Source of the DNA: Candidatus Kapaibacterium sp.
Lineage (GTDB): Bacteria > Bacteroidota > Ignavibacteria > Kapaibacteriales > NICIL-2
Length of the DNA stretch: 64,000 nucleotides
Reading direction: 5' to 3'
NCBI GenBank assembly: GCA_025055755.1
Contig: JANWWF010000004.1
Span: 810-64,809, forward strand
Every line of letters starts with the position of its first letter. Position 1 is the first letter of the stretch. A program made the translations under genes and the position numbers. Below the pieces are notes generated by a model. The model worked only from the letters and a program-made list of their open reading frames with translations, did no database searches and was not told the DNA's origin. Of this stretch, positions 7,342 to 51,643 are shown piece by piece.

Positions 7342-7465
7342 CTATGAAGTCTCTTCGCTACTTTCGAACGCAGCAAATATACTTGCCACAGGTGAGCGTG
7401 TTTTCATGCTCTGTTCATCGAAAGTGTCGCAATTTTGTGCGTGCTATTGTTGCCCTTTGCCTATC

Positions 7466-8605: not shown

Positions 8606-8679
8606 AACACTACACAAAAAATCCTGCAATACCTAACTTCGTAGTGCAGCTTTTTTCACTGCTCCATGCGTAGCGCTTA

Positions 8680-9489: not shown

Positions 9490-9588
9490 GTACTGCATTT
9501 CTGTAGTCGCGTTGGTAGTACTGTCGCACGGGTGATCGGACTGACGCCCTTTCCCCTAAACACACCATTTACTGCAGGAGGCACTGCA

Positions 9589-17991: not shown

Positions 17992-18045
17992 TTATGTAGT
18001 GCTGAAGGGTGAGATAATCCAAAGTCTTCCTTCCATAGCAAACCA

Positions 18046-20324: not shown

Positions 20325-20446
20325 CGCTCGTCTTGATGGCTGTGTGGTTGTATGCAAAGTTAGGTGGCATATCGTTTGGTGCAAGCGGCAATTGTAGAGC
20401 CCGTGCCGTAGATTTGCCACTGAGCGTTACACTCCCCAGAAGTATG

Positions 20447-29494: not shown

Positions 29495-29515
29495 GTGGGT
29501 ATCTCCGTGGTGATG

Positions 29516-33440: not shown

Positions 33441-35624
33441 GTGAATACTGCACGTGTTCCACCTATCATGCCACGGATGGCCCAACTTCCTGCTGCTGGA
33501 ACATCTTCCCCAGCGTTGCCGCCAAACTTAGAAGCCGTGCTGAGCAATTTCGACCGCTACCGAGATCTTCTGCTGGTTGCGGGAATTCTCGGAGTGCTGG
33601 GATTGCTTATCGTGCCACTGCCACCGTTTCTCCTTGACCTTCTGCTGGGGCTGAACATCGCGCTGTCGGTTCTTATTCTGATGGTGGTGGTGTACATCAG
33701 CTCCCCGCTCGATATCAGTACTTTCCCAACCATCCTATTGGTGGCAACCCTTTTTCGCCTCGGTATGAATATCGCCTCGACCCGCCTCATACTGAGTGAA
33801 GCCTCCGCAGGCAAGATTATTCATGCCTTTGGCACCTTTGTCGTCAGCGGCAATTTTGTCGTCGGTATTGTGGTGTTCCTGATTTTGTTGGTGATCAACT
33901 TTGTCGTCATCATCAAGGGATCGACCCGCATTGCAGAAGTTGCCGCACGCTTTACGCTCGATGCCCTCCCCGGAAAACAGATGAGCATTGACGCTGATCT
34001 CAACGCAGGCTTTATTGACGAAAAGGAAGCTCGTCGCCGCCGCGAACAACTCCAACGCGAAGCGGAGTTCTACGGCGCTATGGACGGCGCATCGAAATTC
34101 GTCAAGGGCGATGCTATTGCAGGCTTGGTGATTACGGGGATCAACATCCTTGGCGGCTTTGCTATAGGCGTGCTCCAGCGGGGCATGGACATTAGCGCCG
34201 CACTGAAGACTTACACCATCTTGACCATTGGCGATGGTTTGGTTTCCCAGGTACCGGCATTGCTTGTCTCGGTTGCAGCAGGGCTTATCATTTCACGGAC
34301 AAGCTCGGCAACCTCTCTCGATAAGGACCTGAGCACACAGTTGACCGGCAAGCCACGTCCCTTGCTCGTTGTTGCTGCTGTATCGTTCGGGATGGGATTA
34401 TTGCCCGGCTTCCCGTTCTTTCCTTTTGCGCTGCTGGCACTTTCGATCGGAGCAATTGCCCTCCTCCGGCGCAGGCAAATCGGAGTAGCAGAGCGGGAAA
34501 AACTCCGGCAAGAACTTGCTCAGGCAGAAACAACACGGAAACAGCCCGAGCAGCCTATCGAAGAGCTCGTCAAAGTAGATCCGGTCGAGGTGGAAATTGG
34601 GCTGAATCTGCTTCCCCTTGCCGATGAGCAGCACGGAGGCGATCTTTTCCGGCGAATAGCAAACATCCGCCGCCAATTAGCAACTGAGCTGGGCGTGATT
34701 CTTCCTCCTGTCCGTGTTCGGGATAATCTTGCGCTCGAGCCAGACGAATACGTCATCAAGCTCCGTGGCAATATCGTTGCCCGAAACCGACTCTACGTTG
34801 GCATGCTGCTGGCAATGAATCCCGGCAATGCTGAGGGCACGCTGCGTGGTATTGATGTACAGGAGCCTGTCTTCGGACTACCCGCAACGTGGATTCCTCT
34901 TCATGAACGCGAGAACGCAGAACTGTCCGGCTACACCGTCGTCGAACCCGCAACGGTGCTGGCAACCCATCTTTCCGAAATTCTCCGCCGCAATGCAGAT
35001 AAGCTCCTCACGCGTCAGGATGTACGGCAACTGGTCGAAGCGCTCAAGAAAGACTATCCCGCTCTTGTCGAGGAAATCACACCCGATAATCTCCCACTGG
35101 GCACTGTGCAGAAAGTCTTGCAGAATCTCCTCCGCGAACAAATCCCCATTCGCGATCTCCCGACAATTCTCGAAGCACTGCTCGACTACTTCAAGGTCAC
35201 GAAAAACACCGACGTCCTGACTGAATACGTGCGCCATCATTTGGGCGACACTATCAAACGGCTATTCCAAGACCCCAATGGTGTCATCCATGCAGCCAGT
35301 CTCGATCCGAGCATCGAAAATCTCCTTACCACAACACTGCAGAATAATCCCTCTGCTCAGTCCAGCCCAACGCTGGGACTTTCACCCGAAGTCGTCCGCT
35401 CGCTTCTGCGCAATGTTGGAACTGCACTGGACCACCTAACGATGCTCGGCTACCAGCCGGTAATTATCTGTTCGGCACCAGTGCGTCCCTATCTGTATCG
35501 CCTGATACGCTCCCAATACCCCATTGCAAATGTCATCAGCTACAGTGAACTCCCACCAGAAACAAGCGTGAATGTAGTAACCCGAATTGCACTGCATGAA
35601 AGCACAGAATCGGTTGCGGCATAA
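33441..35624 (+). CDS. flhA: FHIPEP family export-gate protein (FlhA/SctV)
   Basis: LPPFLLDLLLGLNIALSVLIL, FRLGMNIASTRLIL, NFVVIIKGSTRIAEVAARFTLDALPGKQMSIDADLNAG and FYGAMDGASKFVKGDAIAG are FHIPEP hallmarks. 727 aa. Confidence 0.8.
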   Translation: MNTARVPPIMPRMAQLPAAGTSSPALPPNLEAVLSNFDRYRDLLLVAGILGVLGLLIVPLPPFLLDLLLGLNIALSVLILMVVVYISSPLDISTFPTILLVATLFRLGMNIASTRLILSEASAGKIIHAFGTFVVSGNFVVGIVVFLILLVINFVVIIKGSTRIAEVAARFTLDALPGKQMSIDADLNAGFIDEKEARRRREQLQREAEFYGAMDGASKFVKGDAIAGLVITGINILGGFAIGVLQRGMDISAALKTYTILTIGDGLVSQVPALLVSVAAGLIISRTSSATSLDKDLSTQLTGKPRPLLVVAAVSFGMGLLPGFPFFPFALLALSIGAIALLRRRQIGVAEREKLRQELAQAETTRKQPEQPIEELVKVDPVEVEIGLNLLPLADEQHGGDLFRRIANIRRQLATELGVILPPVRVRDNLALEPDEYVIKLRGNIVARNRLYVGMLLAMNPGNAEGTLRGIDVQEPVFGLPATWIPLHERENAELSGYTVVEPATVLATHLSEILRRNADKLLTRQDVRQLVEALKKDYPALVEEITPDNLPLGTVQKVLQNLLREQIPIRDLPTILEALLDYFKVTKNTDVLTEYVRHHLGDTIKRLFQDPNGVIHAASLDPSIENLLTTTLQNNPSAQSSPTLGLSPEVVRSLLRNVGTALDHLTMLGYQPVIICSAPVRPYLYRLIRSQYPIANVISYSELPPETSVNVVTRIALHESTESVAA

Positions 35625-36493: not shown

Positions 36494-36991
36494 TTAGCGA
36501 AGGTCCTTTGGCGTGCGGTGGAACATGAGCCTGCAGCAGCCCTTGCGCACTTGATTCCATGCGGTTTGCTCTGTCTGGAGCACCGCGATTGCGCACGTAG
36601 GCATTGATACGTGCTCCTCGCCAGTAAGGTATTCGAGCAAGTCGCTTATTGAGGGATTATGGCCCACCAGCGCAACTGTTGTGAGCTCAGGATCAAGTCC
36701 CCAAATCGTTGCCAGCAGTGTGTCCAACGAGGGGAGGTAGAGCGCATCGTCGTATTCAACCGAAGGCATGCCGTCTTGCCATGCCTTGAGAAGGTAGTCT
36801 GCTGTTTGGCGAGTGCGAACGGAAGAGCTTGCAACAACTCGTTCAAGCTGAGGCACCATTGCGTGCAGCCACATTCCCATGCGTTCAGCATCCCGGCGAC
36901 CGCGCTCGGTCAGCGGTCGCTCTTGGTCCGCACCCGCAAATTCCTCCGCAGGCACAGCCTTGGCGTGGCGTATCAAGATGAGCTGTTTCAT
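36494..36991 (-). CDS. sixA: phosphohistidine phosphatase SixA
   Basis: LILIRHAKA, TERGRRDA and GHNP of the histidine-phosphatase fold. ATGA start/stop overlap with the upstream patatin gene. Confidence 0.7.
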   Translation of the reverse strand: MKQLILIRHAKAVPAEEFAGADQERPLTERGRRDAERMGMWLHAMVPQLERVVASSSVRTRQTADYLLKAWQDGMPSVEYDDALYLPSLDTLLATIWGLDPELTTVALVGHNPSISDLLEYLTGEEHVSMPTCAIAVLQTEQTAWNQVRKGCCRLMFHRTPKDLR

Positions 36992-39627
36992 TGGATGCGC
37001 ATGCCGATACTGAAGTAACCCAGCAGCGGTCCAAGCGTGAGCTCATGCAGAGCGCCTCGAAAATAGAACGCCCGCCCCAGTGAAAAGCGTGCTGGTCCAA
37101 TCGGTGTGTCAAATGCCAGCATAAGGCCAACACCATGCTTGAGATTGTCGAACTTGACTGCTTGAACAATCTGCCACACCGCCCCAATGTCATAGCGCAG
37201 CGATAGATACGTCGGGAACACAAGCTCTATTGGGGAGCGCAGACGGTATTCAAGTTGTCCCAGTGCAAGCTGTCGCCCTCGCTCCTCCTCTTCTCGCATG
37301 CCGTAAAACAAGTCCTCGCCTCCGAGATTGAACGCCTCGGGAAGCGGCAATGTGTTTGCCGCAATACCAAATCGCACCGACCATCGCACCGCATGGTGGC
37401 GTGCCAGCGTGTGCGTCATGCGGAGCATTGCATCGGTTTTGAAAAACTGCAGCCATCCTGGCGCATCAAGGATGGTGCGTTCGATCGCCAGTCGCAAGTA
37501 GCTTCCTCGACTGGGAAAGTCAGCCCGATCTTCGTTATCAAGCGTTGTGCTCCAGCCCAGTGCAAGCAACGGTGCAAATCTGCGCGATTGAACGTAATCC
37601 CCCAGACGGAAACCGCGTTGTCCCTCGTAGCGGAGAGTGACCACGACCTTGCCCAGTGTCTCGACATTGCTGCCAACCGATGCTCGAATGCCCAGATGCT
37701 GCTCGATTCGTTCCCCTATGCGCACTCGTTCGTAGCGAGCTGGAGGCAGATTGTCAATCAAACGGTACAGGTAGATATTCCGTGAGTCCCAGTAGCCCTC
37801 GATGCTTGCGGTCCAGTAGCTATCCAAAATGCGGGGGACATCCAGGCGGAGCATTCCAATGCTGTTGCGCCCTCCTCCCCCAATTCGGGCAGTAGCCCGT
37901 ATGCCGCTGGAGAGGAGATTTAAGTCTGCCAGTTCCGCAGTGGGCTGGACGTTTCGCTCGTTGTCAATGCGCCCACCGATGCGAAGAAGCTGACTTCCTC
38001 GCTCACGAACCTGCACCCGCAGTGCAACTGCATCGCTTTGGTCGTCGATATACCGTACCGATAGGAGCACATGACTGAACAGGTCTGTCGCGAGCAAACG
38101 CTCCCAACTTTCTAGAAGTGCCGCCGTACGGATTGGCTCTCCAATCGGTGTCCGCAGCTCTCGCTGGACGACAAGATCAGTAGCACTGCAGTTGCCCACC
38201 AATTCAACTGCTCGAAGCCGACCGCTATCGAGCACGACATGGAGCAGATGCTGGATGCTGTCGAAGGTTATCCGCACTCGTGCTGCAGCTAAGCCCTCCT
38301 GGCGAAGGCGGCGTTGCAAGGCATGTGTCAGTGAATCAGCAAGCGCCCGCGAATACGAGCAACCCACAAGTGCATTGAGCGAGGCTGCCCACTGTTCACT
38401 TGGCCCAGCGACTGCCGCAATTTTTCGCTCCGGCGATGGCATAATCTCCGCTATTTCCCCGCTGGAGTCCAAGCGGCAAATCACAGCACCATAGCGTTCC
38501 ACCATCTCGACCAGTGCTGCGGTAGAGCCATACTCGCCGAAAAGAAGATCGCTTGGTGTAGGAAGCGCTGCAACAGAAGTTGCCATCCTCCTCGTAAGGG
38601 AACTTCCCAGATGCCCTATTGCTCGTTGCTGCTGTCGTTCCAGCTCGGCTTGCAGTCTTGTCACAACAGCGCGGCATGCTATTTCCCCTTGAGCAACAAG
38701 CCACTCGAAACGCGAAAAATCCAAGGTGGCGTGGTCTTCCAGCGAAGGTGTAATCGTTAGCCATGCGGCACGTGTTGCGGCTGCGTTGAGCCGTTGCATC
38801 ATCAACGTTACCACCTGATCAGCAACATTCCAGGGCTTGTCGAGGGCTGAGCGGGGCTGCAGCGGTGCAGTGGTATTGACTGCGACCACAAAGTCGGGAT
38901 GAAACTCTGCGTACGCAACCTCGACAGGAATGTTCGCCAGCAAGCCGCCATCAACTAGCACGGCTGAATCCTGGCGAATTGGCGTATAGCGCAAGGGGAA
39001 TGTGCTGCTGGCTCGCACTGCTGTGACCAAGTCCCCCTGGCGAAGCACGACTGTTTCCCCTCGCACCAAGTCTGTTGCGACGGCACGGAAGGGAATACGG
39101 AGCCGGTCAAATGAGCTATTGCATGCTATCGGAGCACGCCAGAGTAGCTCCGCTAAGAGCAATTCCAACCGCTGCCCAGAACTGATTGCCTCTGGAATAA
39201 GAGGCTGAAAGTCCTGCATTCGTACGGAGAACACTGTTCGGTCGTACTCCACCTTTTGGTCGAGAAACAATTCCTCCCGCGATCGTTCATCGCCTATACG
39301 GAAGAGGTCTTGCCATTCCACTCGGCGGACAATCGAGTCAATTTCATCAGCTGAGTATCCTGCACACCACAGTGCACCAATCACTGCACCAATGCTTGTT
39401 CCCACAACCGCAGCAGGATAGAGCCGTTCTTGCTCGAGCACGCGCAGCACTCCAATCTGCGCAAGTCCACGTGCACCGCCGCCACTGAGGACAAGCACCC
39501 ATCGAGGACGAGGGAGCGAGTAATCGTCGAGCACAATGGTTCTCCCTCCATCGCCCCTGGCGACGGTTGACCATGCGGCAACCGCTGCAGCAATAGTCCA
39601 GGCTATTGTGTTAGCGACGTGCTTCAT
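36988..39627 (-). CDS. patatin-like phospholipase fused to Omp85/BamA-type C-terminal beta-barrel (PlpD-like, type Vd autotransporter architecture)
   Basis: Signal peptide MKHVANTIAWTIAAAVAAWS, SGGGARG oxyanion motif, GTSIG nucleophile elbow, VDGGLLANIPV. C-terminal 300 aa have alternating beta-strand pattern ending GYFSIGMRIQ. Confidence 0.65.
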   Translation of the reverse strand: MKHVANTIAWTIAAAVAAWSTVARGDGGRTIVLDDYSLPRPRWVLVLSGGGARGLAQIGVLRVLEQERLYPAAVVGTSIGAVIGALWCAGYSADEIDSIVRRVEWQDLFRIGDERSREELFLDQKVEYDRTVFSVRMQDFQPLIPEAISSGQRLELLLAELLWRAPIACNSSFDRLRIPFRAVATDLVRGETVVLRQGDLVTAVRASSTFPLRYTPIRQDSAVLVDGGLLANIPVEVAYAEFHPDFVVAVNTTAPLQPRSALDKPWNVADQVVTLMMQRLNAAATRAAWLTITPSLEDHATLDFSRFEWLVAQGEIACRAVVTRLQAELERQQQRAIGHLGSSLTRRMATSVAALPTPSDLLFGEYGSTAALVEMVERYGAVICRLDSSGEIAEIMPSPERKIAAVAGPSEQWAASLNALVGCSYSRALADSLTHALQRRLRQEGLAAARVRITFDSIQHLLHVVLDSGRLRAVELVGNCSATDLVVQRELRTPIGEPIRTAALLESWERLLATDLFSHVLLSVRYIDDQSDAVALRVQVRERGSQLLRIGGRIDNERNVQPTAELADLNLLSSGIRATARIGGGGRNSIGMLRLDVPRILDSYWTASIEGYWDSRNIYLYRLIDNLPPARYERVRIGERIEQHLGIRASVGSNVETLGKVVVTLRYEGQRGFRLGDYVQSRRFAPLLALGWSTTLDNEDRADFPSRGSYLRLAIERTILDAPGWLQFFKTDAMLRMTHTLARHHAVRWSVRFGIAANTLPLPEAFNLGGEDLFYGMREEEERGRQLALGQLEYRLRSPIELVFPTYLSLRYDIGAVWQIVQAVKFDNLKHGVGLMLAFDTPIGPARFSLGRAFYFRGALHELTLGPLLGYFSIGMRIQ

Positions 39628-40516
39628 ATGCCTCCCGCATACCCAGGAGCAACGGCAGCATTGCCTCTTCGTACGCACGACGGCTGCGAAGCGCCAGCGC
39701 AACAAGCTCCTCTGAGCCTTCGTGGGTAAAGACATCCCGCCCTGGTGGCGCCTCAACTGCGGCAATGATCTGTTGGGCAACCTCTGCGGCGCTCATCATG
39801 CGCTGTAAAGGAGCCCGCGGAATGTTCCGCTGCTGCGCAATAGCACGAGACCGCACGATCCCTTCGGCAAAAAGGTCGCCAATTGGCGCGCCATCGGTCA
39901 CCTGTGCCCATTCGGTTTGAACGCCGGAGGGACACACCACTGTTGCTTCGACTCCCGTTTCTACCAGCTCAGTGCGCAATGCCGCGATAAATCCAACGAC
40001 TGCATGCTTAGCGGCAACGTATGCAGCGTTGTAGGGATAGGCAATCTTTCCCACAATGCTCGAGACTGCAATAATGTGCCCACGCCGTTGCGCTTTCATC
40101 ACCGGGAGAGCAGGACGCACAAGGTACCACAGCTGATACACGTTGAGTGCGAACATTGCCTGGAGCACGTCAGTAGTAGTGTCTTCCACACTGGCGCAGT
40201 GCCCCCGCCCCGCATTGAGAATGAGCACATCGAGCCGATTGTCATATGCCGCAAGAGTCTGCGTGATGAACTGTTCTGCCTCTTTTTCGACGGATACATC
40301 CACAACCATATCGAGCACGGCTGCAGCTCCGCGCTGGCGCGCTTGTGCTGCTACTTCTGCCAGTCGGTCGCGCCGCCGTGCGCAGAGTGCCAGTCGCACT
40401 CCCCGCGCTCCAAGCTGTTCGGCAAGTGCAGCTCCAATCCCAGACGATGCACCTGTAATAGCAACAACTGTTTCTGCGGTTAGGGGAATACCGGCCTGCA
40501 TGGTAGAAAAGCCCAA
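39611..40516 (-). CDS. short-chain dehydrogenase/reductase
   Basis: TGASSGIG, NAG and YNAAYVAAK (YxxxK). Confidence 0.8.
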   Translation of the reverse strand: MGFSTMQAGIPLTAETVVAITGASSGIGAALAEQLGARGVRLALCARRRDRLAEVAAQARQRGAAAVLDMVVDVSVEKEAEQFITQTLAAYDNRLDVLILNAGRGHCASVEDTTTDVLQAMFALNVYQLWYLVRPALPVMKAQRRGHIIAVSSIVGKIAYPYNAAYVAAKHAVVGFIAALRTELVETGVEATVVCPSGVQTEWAQVTDGAPIGDLFAEGIVRSRAIAQQRNIPRAPLQRMMSAAEVAQQIIAAVEAPPGRDVFTHEGSEELVALALRSRRAYEEAMLPLLLGMREAYEARR

Positions 40517-40844: not shown

Positions 40845-42206
40845 TTACTTGGCTACGATGACAACTTCAGTACGACGGTTGAGTGCACGACCAAATTCCG
40901 TAGTGTTATCGGCGATAGGGCGCGTGTCGCCATAGCCAATTGTCTGAATACGTGATGGATCAATGCCCTTTTTTCTTGTCAAATAGTCCTTAACACTTTC
41001 GGCTCGTGCTTGGGAGAGACGTTGATTGAACCACTTGGCGCCGCGGTTGTCAGTGTGTCCCTCGACTCGGATCACAACACGAGGATTATTCTTCATGAAT
41101 TGCGCCAGGACTTCTAACTCTGGCACATGATCGGGAAGCGTTGCACTGGCAGTTTCGAACAAAAGATTTTCGATGATAAGCTTTCGCCCAAGTTCGACAA
41201 CAGGAATTGTCTTGCGTACCAATTCCTGGCGACGTTGGTTGAGAATAGCAACATTGATGGAGTCCGGAATTGCGGGCAAGTCTGTGCGATAGGTGATCGA
41301 GAAAAGGTTCGTCAATTGGGTCGAGTAGGCGTTCAGGATACGGGCAAATGGCTGCCCGATGTCGAACATTGTACCGCGGGTTGCTTTTGCAATAGTGTCG
41401 TATTGGGTGAGTACAAGGGGGGCTATACAGAAGGTCCGCACGTTTGCCCTTTGGAGCATTTCGATAGCTGACTGCGTTGTGAGGTCAGTTCGCCCATTGC
41501 CGCGCTCTCCTGCCTGATGGTAGGGCGCATCGGTAATCAAAATAGCAACGCGATTGGCAGAGGGGCGATAGTCTAGCTTAGTCGCTTGCCGGAGTGCTTC
41601 GAGCGCATTTTCCTTTTCATCGAATCCTCCCCATGCTCGTGCTCGCGACACCCAGGTGATAAACTCGTTGACATCGCTGGTGAAGGGGTAAACTTTCTCG
41701 ATCACATCGGAAAACAGCACTAACGCAAGGCGGTAGTCAATGCCCCGGGCAAGCAAACTGCGAACAAACTGCGCAATATTATCGCGTACAGCATTGATGT
41801 GGACTTGCATAGTTGCTGTCACATCGAGCACTACCGCGATATCAACCGGTACCCGTTCTTTGACGCTCAACTTAGTCACCGAGAGGACCTGCTTTTCAAC
41901 GCCGTTTTCAAGCACCACAACGTCGCTGGCACGAAGCGTATCGAGCGGGTCACCATTTAGATCGACTGCTTCGACTATGAGGCTAATCTGGGGATAATAC
42001 TTGATGTCAACATTCTGGATGGTCAAGTGGAAACGGTCACTCCGGGGACGGAGCTGTGTTTGGAGTAACACCTGCTGGGGCTCGAGGGAATCTTCCTCTA
42101 CTGGTAAGGATTCTGCCCCTATTACTGGGCTTAGCTGGAAAAGGACATACAGGATAATCCAGCCGATAGAGGACCACATCGGGCGAACTGCCCAAGCATT
42201 GCTCAT
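40845..42206 (-). CDS. exported VWA-domain protein with C-terminal OmpA-like peptidoglycan-binding domain
   Basis: N-terminal hydrophobic segment, VWA block IAVVLDVTATM...ILITDA, and C-terminal OmpA_C (GHTDNRGAKWFNQRLSQARAESV...NRRTEVVIV). Confidence 0.7.
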   Translation of the reverse strand: MSNAWAVRPMWSSIGWIILYVLFQLSPVIGAESLPVEEDSLEPQQVLLQTQLRPRSDRFHLTIQNVDIKYYPQISLIVEAVDLNGDPLDTLRASDVVVLENGVEKQVLSVTKLSVKERVPVDIAVVLDVTATMQVHINAVRDNIAQFVRSLLARGIDYRLALVLFSDVIEKVYPFTSDVNEFITWVSRARAWGGFDEKENALEALRQATKLDYRPSANRVAILITDAPYHQAGERGNGRTDLTTQSAIEMLQRANVRTFCIAPLVLTQYDTIAKATRGTMFDIGQPFARILNAYSTQLTNLFSITYRTDLPAIPDSINVAILNQRRQELVRKTIPVVELGRKLIIENLLFETASATLPDHVPELEVLAQFMKNNPRVVIRVEGHTDNRGAKWFNQRLSQARAESVKDYLTRKKGIDPSRIQTIGYGDTRPIADNTTEFGRALNRRTEVVIVAK

Positions 42207-42306: not shown

Positions 42307-43713
42307 CTACCGTATCGTTAATCGCAGCACTGGCGAAATCATGAAAAAGTTTCTGATCTCCCACGGACGTGGCTCTGCTCGCAGGGGAGTGGAATACTTG
42401 CCCTCTAAGTAGAGCCACTCTCCAACCAGCGGCACATATGCCCGTGCAAAAAGCATTTGGTTAGAATACTGCAAGGCGATCCCAAAGGGAAAGGTTGCTT
42501 GATTGCGGTATTCTATCCGCGCATACAGCCAATCTGCTGCAGTAGTTGGATGGTAGAGCTGCAATCCGGGAATATTCCGAACGAACGTAGTATCCCCCGT
42601 CGCGGGATTACGACGATAAGCCCATTCTTGAACCTCAACGTAGCAAATTCCCAAATCAAAGCGGAAGAAGTTTTCCGGATGCTTCGGATCAAGCCACCAG
42701 TTGTAGAATACTGCTGCATGTCCTGTGGTTCGGAGCACAGGAATAACTGTTGTGGCATCTACACCAGCTGTTCTCCGCAGCTCTGCTTGGCGTTGGAGCG
42801 AGGGAGCATATCCTGCCCACGTGTTCTTCTCTGCACGACCTGTGGTATCCGGACCAACAATAGGGAACTCCACATTGACAGTCACCCCCAGCTGAGGATG
42901 GAACGGGGCATTGATGTCAAGCCCAAGCGATGCTTTGCCGGGGTTTGCATTGAGCTGGCGCTCTGGCAAAAAGCTCAGTAGCCGGTTCGCTAATCCTCCG
43001 CGCAACCGATACACTCCTCCCAGGCGCAAGTTGATGAGGTAGGGGATTGGCTTGTTCGATGCAGGATCGAGATTTTCGTAGAGTGGACGCTGGAGAATCA
43101 CCCGCGATTCCCCTGCAGACCAGAAATGGTAGCCGATGTTATCAGTCCCAAGAATAGAGCGAAGCCAAAAACCGGTCTCCCCAATCTTGAGCGATTGCTC
43201 GAAAGCGGAAATAGCAATGGAATGGGTTACATCGGTTGGCATCATAAAACTGGTGATCACCCGATACTGCCGTTCCGTTGGCGGCATTTCAGGAGGAATC
43301 TCCCGGTAGCAGTAGGGACGCTGTGGATCGCTGAGTGTACCGGCAAGTTTGCGCATGTAGGCATCTACTTCCGATGCCACAAAATACTCCTCCCCGCATT
43401 CGACCAGGAGAATGGTATAGTAGTCGTTGGGATCGCTTTTAGGCGCAGCAGTAATAACGATGTTCTGCATGTCCAGTTTTTCCTTATCGCGCCCATAAAG
43501 GATAAACGTTTGCCGAATTTGCAACTGTAGGTTTGGCTCGCACACACGCCATCGGGGAAAATAGCGCACGATTTCTGGGTCAATAGTCTTGAGTGCCTGC
43601 ATGATGGAGTCCCGCTCAGGGTCCTGCGCATACATCAGGAGTGGGTGGAGTGCTACCAGCACTACACCAGCAATCGCCCGAAGAAATGTTACCGGAGGGA
43701 GAATCGCCTTCAT
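42307..43713 (-). CDS. exported protein of unknown family (paralog of the upstream gene), beta-rich C-terminal half
   Basis: Signal peptide MKAILPPVTFLRAIAGVVLVALHPLLMYAQ. C-terminal FPFGIALQY...LYLEGKY...PRPWEI...ISPVLRL aligns to the C-terminus of the 43728-45458 product. Confidence 0.45.
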   Translation of the reverse strand: MKAILPPVTFLRAIAGVVLVALHPLLMYAQDPERDSIMQALKTIDPEIVRYFPRWRVCEPNLQLQIRQTFILYGRDKEKLDMQNIVITAAPKSDPNDYYTILLVECGEEYFVASEVDAYMRKLAGTLSDPQRPYCYREIPPEMPPTERQYRVITSFMMPTDVTHSIAISAFEQSLKIGETGFWLRSILGTDNIGYHFWSAGESRVILQRPLYENLDPASNKPIPYLINLRLGGVYRLRGGLANRLLSFLPERQLNANPGKASLGLDINAPFHPQLGVTVNVEFPIVGPDTTGRAEKNTWAGYAPSLQRQAELRRTAGVDATTVIPVLRTTGHAAVFYNWWLDPKHPENFFRFDLGICYVEVQEWAYRRNPATGDTTFVRNIPGLQLYHPTTAADWLYARIEYRNQATFPFGIALQYSNQMLFARAYVPLVGEWLYLEGKYSTPLRAEPRPWEIRNFFMISPVLRLTIR

Positions 43714-43727
43714 TGCTGCACTACTGC

Positions 43728-45458
43728 TTAAAAGTTGTAAATCACACGGAGCGTGGGGATAAAGACACTTGCTACTTCCCACTCATGGGGATCCCGTAGG
43801 ATGGGCGCAAAGTACTGCCCATCGACGCGCAATCCTATTTGCTGGCTAATCGGGATAAGAAGCCATGCTTGGGCGTAGATGGCATCATCAAAGTACTGCA
43901 AACCGAAGCCATAAGGAGTTGTCACTCGCTGTGCCATAAAATCAATTCGTGCGGAGACACCTCCAATAAAGCGCGTATCTGTGCGGAACCAGCGGTTGAT
44001 GACAAATGCAGAATCGCGCCGAATAATGCCGCGTTGGTCAATTTCCTGATAGCGTCCGCTGCCGTTGTTTTCTTCCCAAATCTCGCGCGAGTAGAGCGCA
44101 CCACCTATTCGGAAGCGGAAGAAGTTTCCGCTGTCAATCGCAATCGCAAAAGAGTAGTGTACCTGAGCAGCAAAGCGAATCAGGTAATCCAGCGCACGCG
44201 AGTAACTTTGATTGTTGACAAGAGTATCAGTTCCGCGCAATTGGCGGGTAATTGTTGTCACTGTTTCGAGTTGACGCTGATGATCAGACTGCCGGGCTTC
44301 CCCAAAAACATATGACGCAGCAACGTTGAACACACCCGTATTCGCATTGGTAATCTTCAGTGGAAAATCGAACACACCATTGATGCCCCACCCTGCATAC
44401 GTCATCGTCCGCTGTACTCCGAAGGTTCTTGCCACCGACGCCCAGCCGCTGGTAGGGAGAATTACTCCCAGCCGATTTGACCCCCATAACGCATTGAGCG
44501 TGACCCGATCGCTGAAAAATGAGGGATAATTGATTGTTTCTAATCCATACCGAAGCTCAACCCCATACTTTGGCAACGTCCGATTGTACACAAATCCTTC
44601 CGTTGCCGCACTGGGGTCACTGGGAGTATAGTCGCGATAACTAATCAGATCCGGGCTTACCATAAGCTCGCGGCTGCGCATATAGTCCATCGCCTGCCCA
44701 TCGGTGGTACGGACGTATGCGGTGACATCGTCTTCCCTGACCTGGAGACTGACGCCGTAGAGCTTCGGAATAAACTGCTCGTCACCAAGCCCTTGTGCTT
44801 CCGCTGTCACATTGATTCCCTCTGCCTCGCTTTGCTGAATGACAAAGTTGTACAGATACTCGTACAGAGTCTTTGCTGGGGAGCCTGCAGGAGCCGCACT
44901 CTGTCGTAGTTGGGTGTACGTGTAGATATCACGGGGCGAAGCGAGCACATTTGCCAGTACCCGACTTTCGCTATTGGAGGTAAGGAGAGCAATGACCTTG
45001 AAGTCTCTACCCGCAATATACCGGGTTGTAACAACATAGGCACGCTTGAACGTATTGCATTCCCACTGCTTGCGTGCGATTGCATACTTGGCGTAATCAA
45101 TGCATTCCCCTCGGAGGACGCGTTTGATTTCCTCGTCATCTTGCAATGCGCTGAGGTCTGCAGCGCATCCCAGTTCAGCGACTTTGTCGTCAATTTGAGT
45201 TTGACGCGCAGGACTGCACGCTTTTGCCGACTCTGTGATGACCGGTTCTGGATTAAGGAGCTGGGTGACCCCCTTCATCGTTTCCGCATCCAGCTGGAAT
45301 ATCGAGATATTGCCGTAGCGGTAATTTTTGAACTTGCTCATAATGGAGCGCAACTGTGCATCGCTTGTCTGGGAGAAGACACTATTCCTCCCCAGACCTC
45401 CCACAAGAAGTATAGCAAGCGCATGCACGCACACCCTGAAAAGGCAGGTATGTTTCAT
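43728..45458 (-). CDS. exported protein of unknown family, C-terminus ends in aromatic VIYNF (outer-membrane beta-barrel-like)
   Basis: Signal peptide MKHTCLFRVCVHALAILLVGG, Cys-containing N-terminal domain. C-terminal PYGFGLQY...LRVDGQY...PHEWEV...IPTLRVIYNF is shared with the downstream paralog. Confidence 0.45.
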   Translation of the reverse strand: MKHTCLFRVCVHALAILLVGGLGRNSVFSQTSDAQLRSIMSKFKNYRYGNISIFQLDAETMKGVTQLLNPEPVITESAKACSPARQTQIDDKVAELGCAADLSALQDDEEIKRVLRGECIDYAKYAIARKQWECNTFKRAYVVTTRYIAGRDFKVIALLTSNSESRVLANVLASPRDIYTYTQLRQSAAPAGSPAKTLYEYLYNFVIQQSEAEGINVTAEAQGLGDEQFIPKLYGVSLQVREDDVTAYVRTTDGQAMDYMRSRELMVSPDLISYRDYTPSDPSAATEGFVYNRTLPKYGVELRYGLETINYPSFFSDRVTLNALWGSNRLGVILPTSGWASVARTFGVQRTMTYAGWGINGVFDFPLKITNANTGVFNVAASYVFGEARQSDHQRQLETVTTITRQLRGTDTLVNNQSYSRALDYLIRFAAQVHYSFAIAIDSGNFFRFRIGGALYSREIWEENNGSGRYQEIDQRGIIRRDSAFVINRWFRTDTRFIGGVSARIDFMAQRVTTPYGFGLQYFDDAIYAQAWLLIPISQQIGLRVDGQYFAPILRDPHEWEVASVFIPTLRVIYNF

Positions 45459-45498
45459 GCGTTCGTTCCTCCAGAATTGATCATCCGTTCGTTGCACA

Positions 45499-47694
45499 TC
45501 AATAGGTAATGGGGACGTTGATGACAGCTTTCCCATCGGCGGAGACTTCGCCATTACACTTGTTTTTTGCTTTGGCAGAAACAATGAGGGTAACGTTCCC
45601 TTCTACCTTCCCCCGCCGCAAGGGAGGTCCATCCAGCCGTAGCTCCACTTCGTATCCACCCGCTGCCGCGCGGGGATTCTGTGCTGTGACCTTGTATCCC
45701 GCAATGTCCGCTTTTTGAATGACCACCTTAAAGTCGAAAATATCGTTGGGACCAGCTTTCGCCCCCCCAACATCTATGATAGGCGGCAAGATTTTGATGT
45801 TCTTGACCACCACCACCGGCACGCGGGGATCAACAATCTGATCGTATTTGACATCGGTTGTCACGATCTTCGGAGGACGCTGCTTTGGAGTTCCCTGGAG
45901 TGGACCGCTCGGCAACAGCGACACCCGCTCCTTGGTGTCTGGGTCCTCCCACAAGATATCAACGGAGACGGAGTTTGCACCGCAGGGGATCTCCCGCCGA
46001 TATTGCAAGCCACGAACAGGCTGGGATTGCTCATTGCCGATAATAGCGTTGATGAGGTACTGTCCAGCAGAAATCTTCTTCCCGTCAGCTGGAACTGGCA
46101 GTATTTCCAGCTCAGAGCCGAAGTAGCAGTTTTCTACATTTGCTCGCACGTCGTCGAGATTTTCGAGCTTGCTTTCAAAGGATTTTAGCAGCACAGTTTT
46201 GTCGGTAGTCTTCCCTATCCGGTTCGCATGGGTAATAGTCAGCTCGTAATCTCCTGCTGGTATGCTCTGTTCAATGACAATCTTATAGTTCCGGGCTTGA
46301 GCCGTTGGATCACTCGAGGCAGCTGCTTGCTGCGCTGGACCCACATCCACAACTTTCACCGGCAAGACAGGATTTGATCGCACTGTCGGCAGTTTTGCTG
46401 GATCATAAGGACTTGCAGTAAAGGGTATCTCCACTCGTGGCAAGCGATCGAACACATACTTAGCATCCGCAGCATATACTACGGGATCAGAAGGCGGAGG
46501 AATGTTAGGCTTGACCACCCGCACGTTGATTGCATAGGAAGCACGATTCTGGTCAAAGAATGCAGAAGCGCCCGGCGCAAGGAGCTTAGCAATGTAGCTA
46601 TACAGCTCAATGCGACGCATCCGTTCTTGGGCTTTGGGATCATCGGCATCGGATTCATCTTTGACGCGTTTAATCACTGCTTGAATCTGCTCATCAAATT
46701 CGTCAACTGTGATTTTCCCCTGTGCTAAGTCGTCGGAGGAGGGCAGCGGTATACCGCTGAGTTGCTCAACGATGTTCTTTTTGACTTGCAACAAGTCTTT
46801 GATCTTGAGCTGAACGGTACCGATGTTGACTTTCTCTTCCAGTGGCACTTCAGTTGGTGGCACATCGCTCCGAACGCCGAGGATTCGGTTAGTCCGCGAT
46901 GCAAACCGGAGTTTGTACCATCCTGGTTGTCCTGCTGGCTGGAAGCGAACCAAGAAATAGCGCTTTTTGTAGCGTCCTCCACTGTTCCGCGCCTCTTCAT
47001 CGGTCAAATTTTGCAAATAGATGAAGGCCGAATCTGCCGCCGTCGGAGGAGCAAATCGTCGAATATCCCCAATCTTCAGCGTTGATTTGTACACAGGACG
47101 ACGGTAGTCGCTTACTTGGTCCACTTGGAGCTCTAAGCGCTCAAGTGCAAGAAGCTTCCATCGTGCACCATCAACGGCATCCCCGAATTCTTGCCCTTCG
47201 GAGAACCTACTAAAGTCAATTCGCATCTTGCGCAAGCTATCATCGGAAGGGAATGGTGGTGCTCGATCAGGAACATTGCTGGGATGGTAAAAAATTTGGT
47301 AGTCCAGCTCTTGCACATTCGCCAGTTTGATAAGATTGCGCATTTTCTCTGCGGCTTCTTTTGGATCGAGCCCTTCCAATTTATCGGCGGTGCTTACATC
47401 AGTAACTCCTACAATCACCTCATACAGGCGGTCTTGCTTGATCTGTGGCCCCCCTGCAACTCGCATCGAAGCATCTTGCAACGTGATTTCGTCTTGTGGA
47501 CGTGTGCTGATACCTTCTGTCCCTGTCCCTACCTGGAGTTGCGAGAGTATGCTCTCGACAATTTTCATCGACTCTTTCTGCTTCTGAATCAGGTGCTCCT
47601 CGGCCTCATCGCGTTCGACGATGATGATCAGGAGCTCCAGAATAACTGCCAGGTAAAGCACAAAATATACCTTACCCGCACCGCCTTTAGCCAT
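45499..47694 (-). CDS. 731-aa bitopic membrane protein, large beta-rich exported domain, no confident family
   Basis: MAKGGAGKVYFVLYLAVILELLIIIV N-terminal anchor, then a charged coiled region and a long beta-rich C-terminal portion. The anchor loosely resembles the GldM/PorM N-terminus. Confidence 0.5.
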   Translation of the reverse strand: MAKGGAGKVYFVLYLAVILELLIIIVERDEAEEHLIQKQKESMKIVESILSQLQVGTGTEGISTRPQDEITLQDASMRVAGGPQIKQDRLYEVIVGVTDVSTADKLEGLDPKEAAEKMRNLIKLANVQELDYQIFYHPSNVPDRAPPFPSDDSLRKMRIDFSRFSEGQEFGDAVDGARWKLLALERLELQVDQVSDYRRPVYKSTLKIGDIRRFAPPTAADSAFIYLQNLTDEEARNSGGRYKKRYFLVRFQPAGQPGWYKLRFASRTNRILGVRSDVPPTEVPLEEKVNIGTVQLKIKDLLQVKKNIVEQLSGIPLPSSDDLAQGKITVDEFDEQIQAVIKRVKDESDADDPKAQERMRRIELYSYIAKLLAPGASAFFDQNRASYAINVRVVKPNIPPPSDPVVYAADAKYVFDRLPRVEIPFTASPYDPAKLPTVRSNPVLPVKVVDVGPAQQAAASSDPTAQARNYKIVIEQSIPAGDYELTITHANRIGKTTDKTVLLKSFESKLENLDDVRANVENCYFGSELEILPVPADGKKISAGQYLINAIIGNEQSQPVRGLQYRREIPCGANSVSVDILWEDPDTKERVSLLPSGPLQGTPKQRPPKIVTTDVKYDQIVDPRVPVVVVKNIKILPPIIDVGGAKAGPNDIFDFKVVIQKADIAGYKVTAQNPRAAAGGYEVELRLDGPPLRRGKVEGNVTLIVSAKAKNKCNGEVSADGKAVINVPITY

Positions 47695-47770: not shown

Positions 47771-48073
47771 TTAGCGCTTCGGTGGAGCACTTGGTTGGGC
47801 TGGAGCCGCATCCGCTTTCGCTGTTTCGACAGGTGTGGTGCTGTTCTCGTTTGCAGACGCAGGCTGCACGGTGTTCTCCTTTGCCTCTGGGGCATGTTGA
47901 GCAGCGCTACTGGCGCCATGCTTGAGGGAGCAAGAATTTTTCTTTGCTGATGCTTTCGACATGCAGCAAGAAGCCTTTTCCTTCCCGACGCACTTACCAT
48001 CGGGACCACATGCGGATGCAGCGACTGCTCCGCTCACTAACAGTGCAATTGCACTGACAATAAATGCTTTCAT
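47771..48073 (-). CDS. small secreted or lipo-protein, Cys-rich head and Ala/Pro/Ser-rich low-complexity tail
   Basis: MKAFIVSAIALLVSGAVAASAC (possible lipobox ASAC), then CGPDGKCVGKEKASCCMSKAS...NSC. Immediately downstream of nrdJ on the same strand. Confidence 0.35.
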   Translation of the reverse strand: MKAFIVSAIALLVSGAVAASACGPDGKCVGKEKASCCMSKASAKKNSCSLKHGASSAAQHAPEAKENTVQPASANENSTTPVETAKADAAPAQPSAPPKR

Positions 48074-48154
48074 GCTTAGCCTGGTAGTAGTGGAAACGAC
48101 GGTGCAAATATACCAGCTTTTCCCGTTATTACCAAACGCGTGTTGCATTTACTG

Positions 48155-51100
48155 TTATGAACAACCTGTCGTCGTACCGCAATCTTCGCATACGGTGCAG
48201 GAGCCATTTCGCTTGACCCGCATTGAGCCACATGAATAACATTGCTCGCCGGTGTATCCTTGTGCTTTTGCTTGCAAGACAACTTTTGGTTGTTCGCCGC
48301 TACTACTGCGCGGTGCAGCATTTACTTCGACCAACGGAGAAGGAGGTGGAGCAATTGGCGTAGCCTGTGGGACAGCAGAGGTAGGCTTGACCACTGCTTC
48401 CGGTGGAACTTCGTCCACTGCTTTGACGTGCACAAAATCAGTTCGGTTGAGATAGTCGTAGCCAATCGAGCGGAAGACAAAGTCCAGCACGCTGGTCGCA
48501 TACTTGATTGCTTCGTGGCCCTGCACCGGACCCGATGGCTCAAAGCGCGTGAACGTGAAGGTATCGACCAGCTCTTCCAACGGCATGCCGTACTGAAGCG
48601 CTTTCGATGCCAACACGGCAAAGCAGTTCATCAAGCCCTTAAAGGAGGCTCCTTCTTTGTACATATCGATGAAAATCTCGCCCACGGTGCCATCTTCATA
48701 CTCACCCGTGCGCACAAACACCTTATGCCCTCCGACATACGCTTCGCGGATAATTCCCTTCCGCTTTTTCGGCAGACGGCGACGCTCTGCTCGATGGTAC
48801 ACTCGCTCGACGATGCGCTCCTGGACGTACTGCGGTCCTTTCGTTTCATCAAGTGTTTCCTCGTCACCGAGCAGCACAATTTCATCCAGGTCATCATCAG
48901 CAGCAACATTGAGTGGCTGGGAAAGTTTGGAGCCATCTCGGTAGAGCGCAATTGCCTTCAAGCCCAGCTTCCAGGACTCAAGATGGACGTTGGCGATATC
49001 TTCGATGGTCGCCTCGGCAGGCATGTTGATAGTCTTGGAAATTGCACCCGAAATAAACGGCTGGGCGGCTGCCATCATGCGTACATGTGCCATAAAGGGA
49101 ATGTAACGCTGCCCACGCTTGCCGCACTTATTGGCACAATCGAATATCGGTAGATGCTCTGGCTTCAGATGAGGAGCCCCTTCAATCATCATGGTCCCGC
49201 ACACATAGTCGTTGGCCCGTTCGATTTCCTCCTTGGAAAATCCCAAAGCCGAAAGCATGTCGAACGATGGATCGTTCAATTGCTCGGAAGTAAAGCCAAG
49301 AACACGGGTGCAGAACTCTTCCCCAAGTGTCCATTTGTTGAACGCAAAGCGAATGTCAAACACTGTGTCAAGCTGTGCCTCAATTGCTGCAAGAGCCTCG
49401 TCGGTGAAACCTTTTTCCTTAAGTCGAGCACGATTGATCGTCGGGCAACCGACCAGCGTTCCATGTCCCTTGCAGTAGCGCTCAATATCCTCGATTTGTT
49501 CGGGGGTGTATCCCAGCCGTTTAAGCGCTTTCGGCACCGACTGATTGACGATTTTGAAGTATCCCCCACCTGCAAGTTTCTTGAACTTGACGATAGCAAA
49601 ATCTGGCTCGATTCCTGTGGTGTCGCAATCCATTAGCAATCCGATGGTACCGGTCGGTGCAATCACGGTTACCTGCGCATTGCGATAGCCATACTTTTCG
49701 CCCATCTCCAGAGCACGGTCCCACGCCTGGCGTGCTGCCGCAACAAGGTTTTTGTCGGGGCACTTGCTGCCGTCGAGTCCCATGGGAAGAATGGTCAGCC
49801 CCTCGTATTCATGGGGTGGAGCATTGTACGCAGCACGGCGATGATTGCGAATAACTCGGAGCATCGGCTCTCGATTCGCCTCAAAGCGAGGGAATGGTCC
49901 CAGCTCTCGTGCCATCTCTGCGCTGGTAGCATATGCTTCCCCGGTCATAAGCGCAGTAATAGCCCCACAGTATGCCAGTGCCTCGGGCGAATCATACGGA
50001 ATACCGAGAATCATCAAGATAGTCCCCAAGTTCGCATAGCCCAGCCCCAAAGTGCGATAGTCATAGCTTTTCTGTGCAATCGCTTTTGAGGGAAACTGGG
50101 CCATTAGCACGCTGATTTCAAGCACAATTGTCCACAACCGTACTGCATGGCGGAAGTCGTCAACGCGAAATTCTCCCGTTTCCTCATCGAGGAAGTGCGC
50201 CAAATTCAGCGACGCAAGGTTACATGCTGTATCATCAAGAAACATGTACTCGGAACAGGGATTCGAAGCATTGATGCGCCCGTCCACTGGACAGGTGTGC
50301 CACTCGTTGATGGTTGTATCAAATTGCAAGCCAGGGTCTGCACTTTTCCACGCACTGATGTTGATTTTATCCCACAGCTCCCGTGCTCGCACCGTGCGCG
50401 CAACTTGCCCCGTAGTGCGCCATCGCAAATGCCAGAGCCGGTCGGCAAGCACTGCTTCCATAAATTCGTTTGTGACCCGAACAGAATTGTTCGAATTCTG
50501 CCCCGAGACTGTCAGGTACGCCTCCCCTTCATAATGAGTATCGAGCACCTCCAGATCGATTGTGGTAATGCCCTGCCGCACCAGTGCCAGCGTCCGCTCG
50601 ATATAGGCACGGGGCACCCCTCGATGCAACGCGCGACGGACTAATGTTCGCAGTCGTGGATTGGTGGCATAGTCCGCCCCTCCTGCAGCGGCTTCATTGG
50701 CGATTGCTTGCAAAAAGGTCTTGTTGATCCGCGATCCAGTAACCAACGCGGCAACTTTTTCTTCCTCTTTTGCTTTCCACTCGATAAATTCTTCTACGTC
50801 GGGGTGGTCAATATTCACAATAACCATTTTGGCAGCACGACGTGTTGTCCCGCCGGACTTGATTGCGCCCGCAGCGCGATCGAAAACTTTCAAAAAGCTC
50901 ATCAATCCAGAAGACACGCCTCCACCGGAGAGTTTTTCGCCTTTAGCGCGCAGTGTCGAAAAATTTGTTCCTGTACCGGAGCCATACTTGAAAATGCGTG
51001 CTTCCCGCGTGACCAAGTCGAAAATGCCCCCTTCGTTGACCAAATCGTCCGCAACACTTTGGATAAAGCAGGCATGCGGTTGGGGGCGGGTGTATGCATC

Positions 51101-51616
51101 AGTGGACTGCTTGAGCTCACCGGTATCTGGGTCGACGTAGTAATGCCCTTGCGGAGAACCAGTGATGCCATATGCCCAGGCCAGCCCCGTATTGAACCAC
51201 TGAGGGGAATTGGGTGCGGCCATCTGTGCCAGCAGCATGTACACTAATTCATCGTAGAATGCTTGTGCATCCTCGTCGCTGTCGAAATAACCGTAGCGCT
51301 TTCCCCAGTCTGTCCAACATCCTGCCAAGCGGTGGACAACTTGCTTGACCGACCGCTCACTGCCCAGCACGGGTTTCCCATCGGGTCCAAGAAGGGGATT
51401 CCCCTCCGCATCGTATTGAGGCACTCCTGCTTTGCGGAAGTACTTCTGTGCCAAAATATCGGTAGCTACCTGCGACCAATGTGCAGGCACCTCGATATCG
51501 TCCATTTGAAACACAATCGATCCATCGGGATTTCGCAGGACAGACGAGCGCAACGTGTACTCAAACATCGAATAGGGGCTGACACCCGGCTTGGTAAAGC
51601 GACGTTGGATTTTCAT
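48155..51616 (-). CDS. nrdJ: adenosylcobalamin-dependent ribonucleotide reductase (class II)
   Basis: Class II RNR blocks throughout (about 1150 aa) and a C-terminal Cys-rich tail (CYSCGS...CTVCEDCG), as in monomeric or dimeric NrdJ. Confidence 0.9.
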   Translation of the reverse strand: MKIQRRFTKPGVSPYSMFEYTLRSSVLRNPDGSIVFQMDDIEVPAHWSQVATDILAQKYFRKAGVPQYDAEGNPLLGPDGKPVLGSERSVKQVVHRLAGCWTDWGKRYGYFDSDEDAQAFYDELVYMLLAQMAAPNSPQWFNTGLAWAYGITGSPQGHYYVDPDTGELKQSTDAYTRPQPHACFIQSVADDLVNEGGIFDLVTREARIFKYGSGTGTNFSTLRAKGEKLSGGGVSSGLMSFLKVFDRAAGAIKSGGTTRRAAKMVIVNIDHPDVEEFIEWKAKEEEKVAALVTGSRINKTFLQAIANEAAAGGADYATNPRLRTLVRRALHRGVPRAYIERTLALVRQGITTIDLEVLDTHYEGEAYLTVSGQNSNNSVRVTNEFMEAVLADRLWHLRWRTTGQVARTVRARELWDKINISAWKSADPGLQFDTTINEWHTCPVDGRINASNPCSEYMFLDDTACNLASLNLAHFLDEETGEFRVDDFRHAVRLWTIVLEISVLMAQFPSKAIAQKSYDYRTLGLGYANLGTILMILGIPYDSPEALAYCGAITALMTGEAYATSAEMARELGPFPRFEANREPMLRVIRNHRRAAYNAPPHEYEGLTILPMGLDGSKCPDKNLVAAARQAWDRALEMGEKYGYRNAQVTVIAPTGTIGLLMDCDTTGIEPDFAIVKFKKLAGGGYFKIVNQSVPKALKRLGYTPEQIEDIERYCKGHGTLVGCPTINRARLKEKGFTDEALAAIEAQLDTVFDIRFAFNKWTLGEEFCTRVLGFTSEQLNDPSFDMLSALGFSKEEIERANDYVCGTMMIEGAPHLKPEHLPIFDCANKCGKRGQRYIPFMAHVRMMAAAQPFISGAISKTINMPAEATIEDIANVHLESWKLGLKAIALYRDGSKLSQPLNVAADDDLDEIVLLGDEETLDETKGPQYVQERIVERVYHRAERRRLPKKRKGIIREAYVGGHKVFVRTGEYEDGTVGEIFIDMYKEGASFKGLMNCFAVLASKALQYGMPLEELVDTFTFTRFEPSGPVQGHEAIKYATSVLDFVFRSIGYDYLNRTDFVHVKAVDEVPPEAVVKPTSAVPQATPIAPPPSPLVEVNAAPRSSSGEQPKVVLQAKAQGYTGEQCYSCGSMRVKRNGSCTVCEDCGTTTGCS

Positions 51617-51643
51617 GGTGCTTTCTCGGGACAACACAATAGT

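Follow-up and report, generated by a model that had tools for sequence, protein, structure and literature searches.

Which envelope function is served by a run of genes, most of them outside the described protein families, in a genome of the Kapabacteria? The question is raised by a 64,000-nucleotide stretch of DNA from Candidatus Kapaibacterium sp. (assembly GCA_025055755.1, contig JANWWF010000004.1, positions 810 to 64,809; hereafter the window), in which a first, sequence-only reading had singled out three consecutive genes, here termed A, B and C, as an envelope operon of unassigned function. The three open reading frames (ORFs) lie where that reading had placed them, and their products carry the expected export features, namely one N-terminal transmembrane helix in A and Sec-type signal peptides without a lipobox at the N-termini of B and C. 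The close spacing of 14-40 nucleotides also holds, with gaps of 40 nucleotides between A and B and 14 nucleotides between B and C, and a further 100 nucleotides separate C from a fourth gene, D, which encodes an exported protein with VWA and OmpA-like domains. The arrangement A-B-C was correctly recognized, and the extent of the operon was not, as D belongs to it and the unit comprises four genes. A-B-C-D is a real, conserved, previously unannotated cell-envelope module, and three of its four proteins (A, B and C) belong, as far as sequence comparison reaches, to no described family.

The initial impression that no confident family could be named for A, B and C was confirmed by each of the searches. 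They are matched by zero Pfam or NCBIfam models at E<=1, a PADLOC scan of the three gave no family match, and neither their individual sequences nor their family profiles matched any PDB sequence. Their homologues are all annotated as 'hypothetical' and a Pfam domain is found in none, while an identical A protein is on record from a Bacteroidota/Kapabacteria metagenome-assembled genome (MAG). The C-family profile, searched exhaustively by HMMER, returned only 127 matches among 1.84 billion cluster representatives, and a literature search found no paper that describes the A-B-C-D module.

The coherence of the unit is evident from its distribution. One genome per GTDB species was scanned with two N-terminal A peptide patterns, which disclosed relatives of A encoded in 292 genomes, and the best 80 of these 292 are MAGs labelled Kapabacteria, Ignavibacteria or Chlorobiota, a few of them with implausible bin labels. 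Subsequently, 82 loci from approximately 80 species-level genomes were compared by tblastn and all-against-all ORF clustering; A was present in 80 of them, B in 77, C in 74 and D in 68, and the missing genes are mostly explained by contig ends. The order A<B<C<D is displayed by all of the loci that hold the four genes (68/68), D follows C in 68 loci, and the median gaps amount to about 44, 43 and 90 nucleotides (A-B, B-C and C-D). Even where A identity is down to 37%, in L001 (Ignavibacteria) and in L003 (HR21), the four genes stand in the same order, with wholly dissimilar flanks. No neighbour other than A, B, C and D is conserved, and the unit is one of four genes. The earlier proposal of an undescribed, conserved cell-envelope module is upheld by this gene order across about 80 species-level genomes and by the predicted barrel fold of C. 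Separately, tblastn left 61 of the 353 stretches with an N-terminal A pattern unconfirmed as relatives of A; contig truncation could account for these, or they may encode different proteins that have the invariant helix in common with A.

That helix belongs to the N-terminus of A, which begins MAKGGAGKVYFVLYLAVILELLIIIVERDEAEE; there a short basic stretch on the cytoplasmic side precedes a single hydrophobic transmembrane helix, MAKGGAGK-VYFVLYLAVILELLIIIV-ERDEAEE. The AlphaFold model of A, built with 117 homologues (mean predicted local distance difference test score, pLDDT, 86.4), predicts a long helix that leads through a sequence-invariant linker into alpha/beta domains, a helical region and a series of immunoglobulin (Ig)-like beta-sandwich domains (Table 1), and Ig-like folds are among the structure-search matches of the model. 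No part of the operon is better conserved than the N-terminal module, which shows a column conservation of 87-96% for residues 1-66 among the 117 homologues (37-92% identical overall), and conservation drops steadily toward the C-terminus, to 40-46% in the Ig-like domains and about 40% in the last ones. Of the 18 helix positions (residues 9-26), 15 do not vary in any of the 117 sequences, and the three remaining positions exchange I, V and L only. K8, Y10, Y14, R28 and D29 are invariant, as is E20, which lies inside the membrane, and position 27 is occupied by Glu in 110 and by Asp in 7 of the 117 sequences. Hydrophobic residues normally interchange freely in lipid-facing helices. Because nearly every position is invariant here, including the membrane-embedded Glu20, the helix would be enclosed by a conserved protein partner, and we infer that it is buried in such an inner-membrane partner and does not face the lipid.

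At the outer membrane, C is by its predicted fold a bona fide beta-barrel, combining a signal peptide with a closed antiparallel barrel of about 14 strands (AlphaFold model, mean pLDDT 87.6). The closest known proteins are the monomeric 12-14-stranded barrels Omp33, OmpG, BamG, PorV and FadL/TodX, to which C shows 6-10% sequence identity; none of them possesses the 110-residue, Cys-containing alpha/beta N-domain of C, and C is assignable to no specific outer-membrane barrel family. Protein B ends ...VIYNF, and its terminal N575/F576 are nearly invariant among homologues. A signal peptide is present in all B homologues of the family alignment; since all of them carry this hydrophobic leader, B is better taken to start with MKHT, at position 45458. 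In the public record P0121 (537 residues), B begins at an internal Met and thereby loses the signal peptide. B and C had been regarded as clear paralogues with a shared C-terminal block, and the motifs PYGFGLQY, LRVDGQY, PHEWEV and PTLRV are indeed found in B. BLASTP aligned the two proteins at 28% identity over 135 residues (E=8e-9), and comparison of their family profiles by hhalign gave 96% probability (E=4e-9), limited to about 190 columns at the C-terminus. The paralogy, read from these alignments, is real but partial: it is confined to the C-terminal barrel half and does not extend elsewhere.

In protein D, the Asp and Thr of a motif resembling the metal-ion-dependent adhesion site (D..T) are conserved in 75 homologues, as are the OmpA-type motifs TD..G / NRRTE, and D stays below the cut-off of every named NCBIfam equivalog.

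Table 1. Features of the module and of other parts of the window (nucleotide positions refer to the window)
Feature	Position	Strand	Description
Gene A	45499-47694	minus	731 residues; bitopic inner-membrane protein with N-terminal membrane anchor
A, residues 1-66	47497-47694	minus	N-terminal module
A, residues 9-26	47617-47670	minus	transmembrane helix
A, residues 7-55			one helix predicted to span the membrane and continue long (AlphaFold)
A, residues 56-66			linker; low model confidence, sequence-invariant
A, residues 67-297			predicted alpha/beta domains (AlphaFold)
A, residues 298-380			predicted helical region (AlphaFold)
A, residues 384-731			about four predicted Ig-like beta-sandwich domains (AlphaFold)
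Gene B	43728-45458	minus	576 residues from MKHT start; exported
B, N-terminal region			after signal peptide; Cys-containing
B, residues ~354-572	43743-44399		C-terminal region homologous to C barrel
Gene C	42307-43713	minus	468 residues from MKAIL start; outer-membrane protein
C, residues 45-157	43243-43581		110-residue alpha/beta N-domain; conserved cysteines; periplasmic
C, residues 164-467	42313-43224		barrel, about 14 strands
Gene D	40845-42206	minus	453 residues; exported VWA-OmpA protein; fourth module member
D, residues 122-272	41391-41843		VWA domain; Pfam VWA 5.8e-12, 46.6 bits (cut-off 23.8)
D, residues 349-444	40875-41162		OmpA-like peptidoglycan-binding domain; Pfam OmpA 2.9e-21, 76.1 bits (cut-off 27.2)
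Small secreted protein	47771-48148	minus	125 residues; Cys-rich, low-complexity; 76 nucleotides upstream of A
Ribonucleotide reductase	48155-51637	minus	class II (B12-type) with TSCPD domain
Patatin-POTRA-Omp85	36988-39780	codirectional with module	Pfam-confirmed
FlhA	33441-35624	plus	full-length; FHIPEP E=1.8e-266
DUF1501 and DUF1800 genes	27917-31087	minus	adjacent; recurrent pair of uncharacterised exported proteins
G+C peak	18001-20400		local G+C 0.62 versus ~0.54 elsewhere; several long overlapping ORFs on both strands
426-residue ORF	18918-20198		no Pfam match

The reading favoured here, to which a probability of roughly 0.45 is assigned and which is accordingly offered as tentative, takes A-B-C-D for a new, self-contained, envelope-spanning complex that is possibly motor-coupled. 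A would be anchored in the inner membrane by its one helix, its periplasmic rod would cross to the B/C barrel pair, and D would tie the assembly to the cell wall through peptidoglycan binding. With lower confidence, the helix of A might sit inside an ion-conducting partner, which in distant relatives is probably an adjacent protein, L, equipped with a transmembrane hairpin bearing an invariant Glu and an invariant Arg, and with a coiled coil. L and A could then work like GldL-GldM, MotA-MotB or ExbB-ExbD-TonB, as an ion-driven inner-membrane unit whose mechanical energy would be passed through A to the outer-membrane barrels, with export, uptake or surface movement as candidate outputs.

The distant relatives, by analogy, suggest such motor coupling of the module without proving it. 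They were reached through the weak tail of the C-profile search, which led to operons of the forms A(800)-B-C-D (L088), A(641)-B-B'-C-D (L087) and A(529)-B-C, the last without D (L089). In L087, three barrel genes lie between A and D at 6428-9977 (B, 669 residues; B', 462 residues; C, 515 residues), which shows that duplication can enlarge the set of barrels. The remaining variants contain L, in the order L-A'-B'-C' (L086, L092 and L094, together with a fourth case in the P0424 locus, which came without DNA and has gene sizes of 281-469-446-494) or in the order B'-C'-L-A' (L085 and L090), and a C'-L junction is seen on two short contigs (L091 and L093). The A' proteins comprise 440-545 residues and their N-termini are matched by the A-family hidden Markov model (HMM) with E=2e-12 to 4e-16; that of L094 starts MKAGVYFVLYLAVILEILIIIVERDEAED, which is nearly identical to the start of A in the window. 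L is a polytopic membrane protein of 270-329 residues with 3-5 predicted transmembrane helices, and its core, according to a six-protein alignment with the topology read from sequence, is a hairpin formed by the terminal transmembrane helices. The first hairpin helix ends in an invariant Arg (G[LMF]R[GS]), an invariant Glu (LEF, VEF or LEM) lies in the last helix, and the hairpin exit, of KPE type, leads into a C-terminal cytoplasmic coiled coil. The core consensus reads Y-E-N-N-[VI]-Q ... G-A-A-x-L ... G-[LMF]-R-[GS] ... L-E-[FM]-[ST]-L-L ... F-[FY]-K-P-E. Both the L-A' order and the B'-C' adjacency are kept through the two operon arrangements, which argues for functional coupling.

Further genes accompany these variants. 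A 386-residue protein with TPR and response-regulator receiver domains is encoded directly after A' in L085 (13644-14804) and L090 (10128-11288), and its predicted domains hint at phosphorelay regulation. Proteins with a DUF4384 domain are encoded near L-A'-B'-C' in two independent loci, L086 (6613-7440) and the P0424 locus, and a caspase-like Peptidase_C14 gene and a Ser/Thr kinase also lie downstream in L086.

Among the known motors, GldL-GldM is a GldL5GldM2 proton-driven motor, in which transmembrane protonatable residues are essential (bioRxiv 10.1101/2022.01.28.478170). The all-round invariance of the A helix is consistent with a 5:2 motor geometry, where a single-pass helix is enclosed by the polytopic subunit. 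The likeness to GldL-GldM and PorL-PorM, which occur in the same superphylum as the module, extends to the layout of A, with an N-terminal transmembrane helix and a periplasmic rod predicted to end in Ig-like domains, to the gene order in the distant relatives, where A' directly follows L as gldM follows gldL, and to L itself, with a transmembrane hairpin, a conserved Glu in the last helix and a cytoplasmic C-terminal region. The differences are that A carries its own membrane Glu, that the candidate outer-membrane partners are two beta-barrels and a VWA-OmpA protein, not GldK/GldN rings, and that no L gene stands beside the module in the lineage of the window.

Other envelope machines share parts of this plan. 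As in Tol-Pal and TonB-ExbBD, the module would combine an inner-membrane-anchored, periplasm-spanning transducer (A, in a role like that of TolA or TonB) with outer-membrane barrel targets, and D, as an OmpA-type peptidoglycan-binding component, would resemble Pal. However, Pfam and NCBIfam models detect no TolA, TonB, TolB or TonB_C domain, the module has no tolQR or exbBD, an SHLS-type motif is not found in the transmembrane sequence of A (VYFVLYLAVILELLIIIV), the module barrels are about 14-stranded (C model) as against 22-stranded plugged receptors, and D differs from Pal in having an extra VWA domain and no lipobox. Instructive by analogy is the Agl-Glt machinery of Myxococcus, with the outer-membrane barrels GltA/GltB, two paralogues that stabilise each other (PMC4488436), and with CglB, which contains a VWA domain (PMC9946355). 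It resembles the proposed complex as a trans-envelope machine with two paralogous barrels and a VWA protein, and its motor genes lie apart from the outer-membrane genes. It differs in belonging to another phylum and in lacking sequence similarity, GltA/GltB are small OmpA-like barrels, and CglB sits as a lipoprotein on the cell surface, unlike D with its periplasmic peptidoglycan-binding domain.

A number of results weigh against motor coupling. L was detected by six-frame HMM search in the variant loci only, and the same search of the 64-kb window and 84 loci of the ABCD type (about 22 kb each) found none; moreover, D does not occur near the L-A' pair in the L-bearing variants, which may therefore be functionally different systems from ABCD. 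Curated Pfam and NCBIfam models recognize nothing in A' or L, and models of MotA/ExbB/TolQ, of MotB/ExbD and of the PADLOC ZorA/B proteins gave no match to A, A' or L. HMMs were also made from PDB sequences of GldL transmembrane hairpins (five species) and GldM/PorM N-termini (four sequences). The GldM N-terminus HMM matches no A or A' protein, and the GldL HMM, run against only 2,749 proteins, does not hit L, the L protein of L086 coming closest at E=6.5. In the reverse direction, PDB searches with L gave nothing significant; the L profile aligned with the GldL hairpin of 7sax_C in register, at E=3.9 only. All hosts of the module are uncultured MAGs. The sole match to any motor model is that of the generic OmpA domain of D to MotB/ZorB C-termini. 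A metagenome scan with patterns poorly chosen from the L alignment yielded two loci only.

The module has no L gene next to it in the lineage of the window, so that L would have to be encoded elsewhere in Kapabacteria genomes; the other readings are that A uses another partner, or that ABCD works stator-free. Homology of L and A to GldL and GldM was dropped after the curated and the PDB-derived HMMs had failed, and the architectural analogy was kept; the resemblance of A/L to GldLM would lie in a possible way of working, not in detectable ancestry. The more specific claim that A/L constitute an undescribed ion-driven motor family, unrelated in sequence to GldLM, MotAB, ExbBD and TolQR, which powers a two-barrel module, is judged unlikely.

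The same absence of a stator-like gene in or near the ABCD module (84 loci) speaks for a passive tether, in which the four proteins would hold the two membranes and the peptidoglycan together for envelope integrity, as OmpA, Pal or Lpp do, with no energy coupling, and the invariant helix of A would reflect tight homo-oligomerisation only. The OmpA-type peptidoglycan-binding domain of D with its conserved motifs fits this explanation, and the long helix of A (residues 7-55) could form a coiled coil; an invariant membrane-embedded Glu and all-round helix invariance are nevertheless unusual for a simple anchor, and the relatives put the same helix beside a polytopic protein with its own invariant membrane Glu. 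A purely structural role is possible and is judged rather unlikely.

The sequence-only reading had noticed a loose resemblance of A to GldM/PorM, which leads to the proposal that A is a diverged orthologue of GldM/PorM, encoded in an operon that would be a lineage-specific part of the type IX secretion or gliding apparatus. Its layout of an N-terminal transmembrane helix and a periplasmic rod with terminal Ig-like domains is the same, although this is a generic feature and insufficient for GldM/PorM membership; in addition, the L-A' gene order mirrors gldL-gldM, and proteins with a Por_Secre_tail domain occur in the clade, where they are carried by the relatives' loci. The family models, however, are silent: GldM models of Pfam and NCBIfam have no match at E<=1 in A or 24 diverse homologues, GldM/GldL models find nothing at E<=1-10, and the PDB-derived GldM HMM fails on A. 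The D1 domain is helical in GldM/PorM crystal structures, whereas the membrane-proximal domains of A are alpha/beta in the model, and GldM and PorM are absent from the top fold matches of A. No adjacent gldK- or gldN-like genes were found in about 90 loci; the earlier remark that gldK-, gldL- and gldN-like neighbours are lacking applies to the window and 84 related loci alike, and the L-bearing variant loci contain no gldK/gldN-like genes. Hence the resemblance fails as homology and is supported as architecture, indirectly, through L-A' in distant relatives, and orthology to GldM is improbable. Two type IX secretion substrates with C-terminal domains had also been claimed for the window, which could not be confirmed, as the 20 other window ORFs scanned gave no Por_Secre_tail match, and no link of the module to type IX secretion emerged.

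A role as a flagellar motor accessory, for instance as a disk in the periplasm or outer membrane or as a stator scaffold, is very improbable and was rejected as a leading idea for want of conserved linkage, since no flagellar gene is a conserved module neighbour in about 80 loci and, although FlhA is encoded in the window and the OmpA domain of D scores against MotB, MotD, MotS and MotY models, these scores lie far below the family cut-offs and reflect a generic OmpA domain only.

Several other genes of the window adjoin the module or deserve mention in their own right. The commonest non-module neighbour across the loci is the class II ribonucleotide reductase (17 loci), a flank which is probably a matter of synteny within one subclade and not a functional link. 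The patatin-Omp85 gene was considered as a module member and rejected, being present in 11 loci only, all of close relatives; of the codirectional block described earlier, the orientation of the VWA-OmpA and patatin-Omp85 genes stands, and the linkage of the latter does not. The small Cys-rich protein may be co-transcribed with A in the window and is possibly metal-binding; it is kept upstream of A in close relatives only (8-9 loci) and lies outside the conserved module. FlhA stands alone in the window, flanked by an MgtC/DUF4010 gene and by small unrelated ORFs, and its presence means that the organism encodes a component of a flagellar-type export gate. The DUF1501/DUF1800 pair and the region of the G+C peak, with its 426-residue ORF, are listed in Table 1.

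Kapabacteria/Ignavibacteria-type lineages are widespread and uncultured, and their envelope biology is inferred wholly by homology. In A-B-C-D they possess a strictly conserved module, counted in 292 species-level genomes, whose predicted architecture connects inner membrane, cell wall and outer membrane, and the invariant helix together with the charged polytopic partner in relatives provides a testable hypothesis of an energy-transducing envelope machine. If the A/L reading is true, uncultured lineages of the Bacteroidota group would possess a new machine that transduces energy across the envelope and serves secretion, uptake or surface motility, and the Kapabacteria form would add a peptidoglycan-anchoring VWA-OmpA subunit to it. 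Even as a mere structural tether, the module would comprise three new protein families, with a fourth (L) in relatives, and it constitutes an annotation target for hundreds of genomes.

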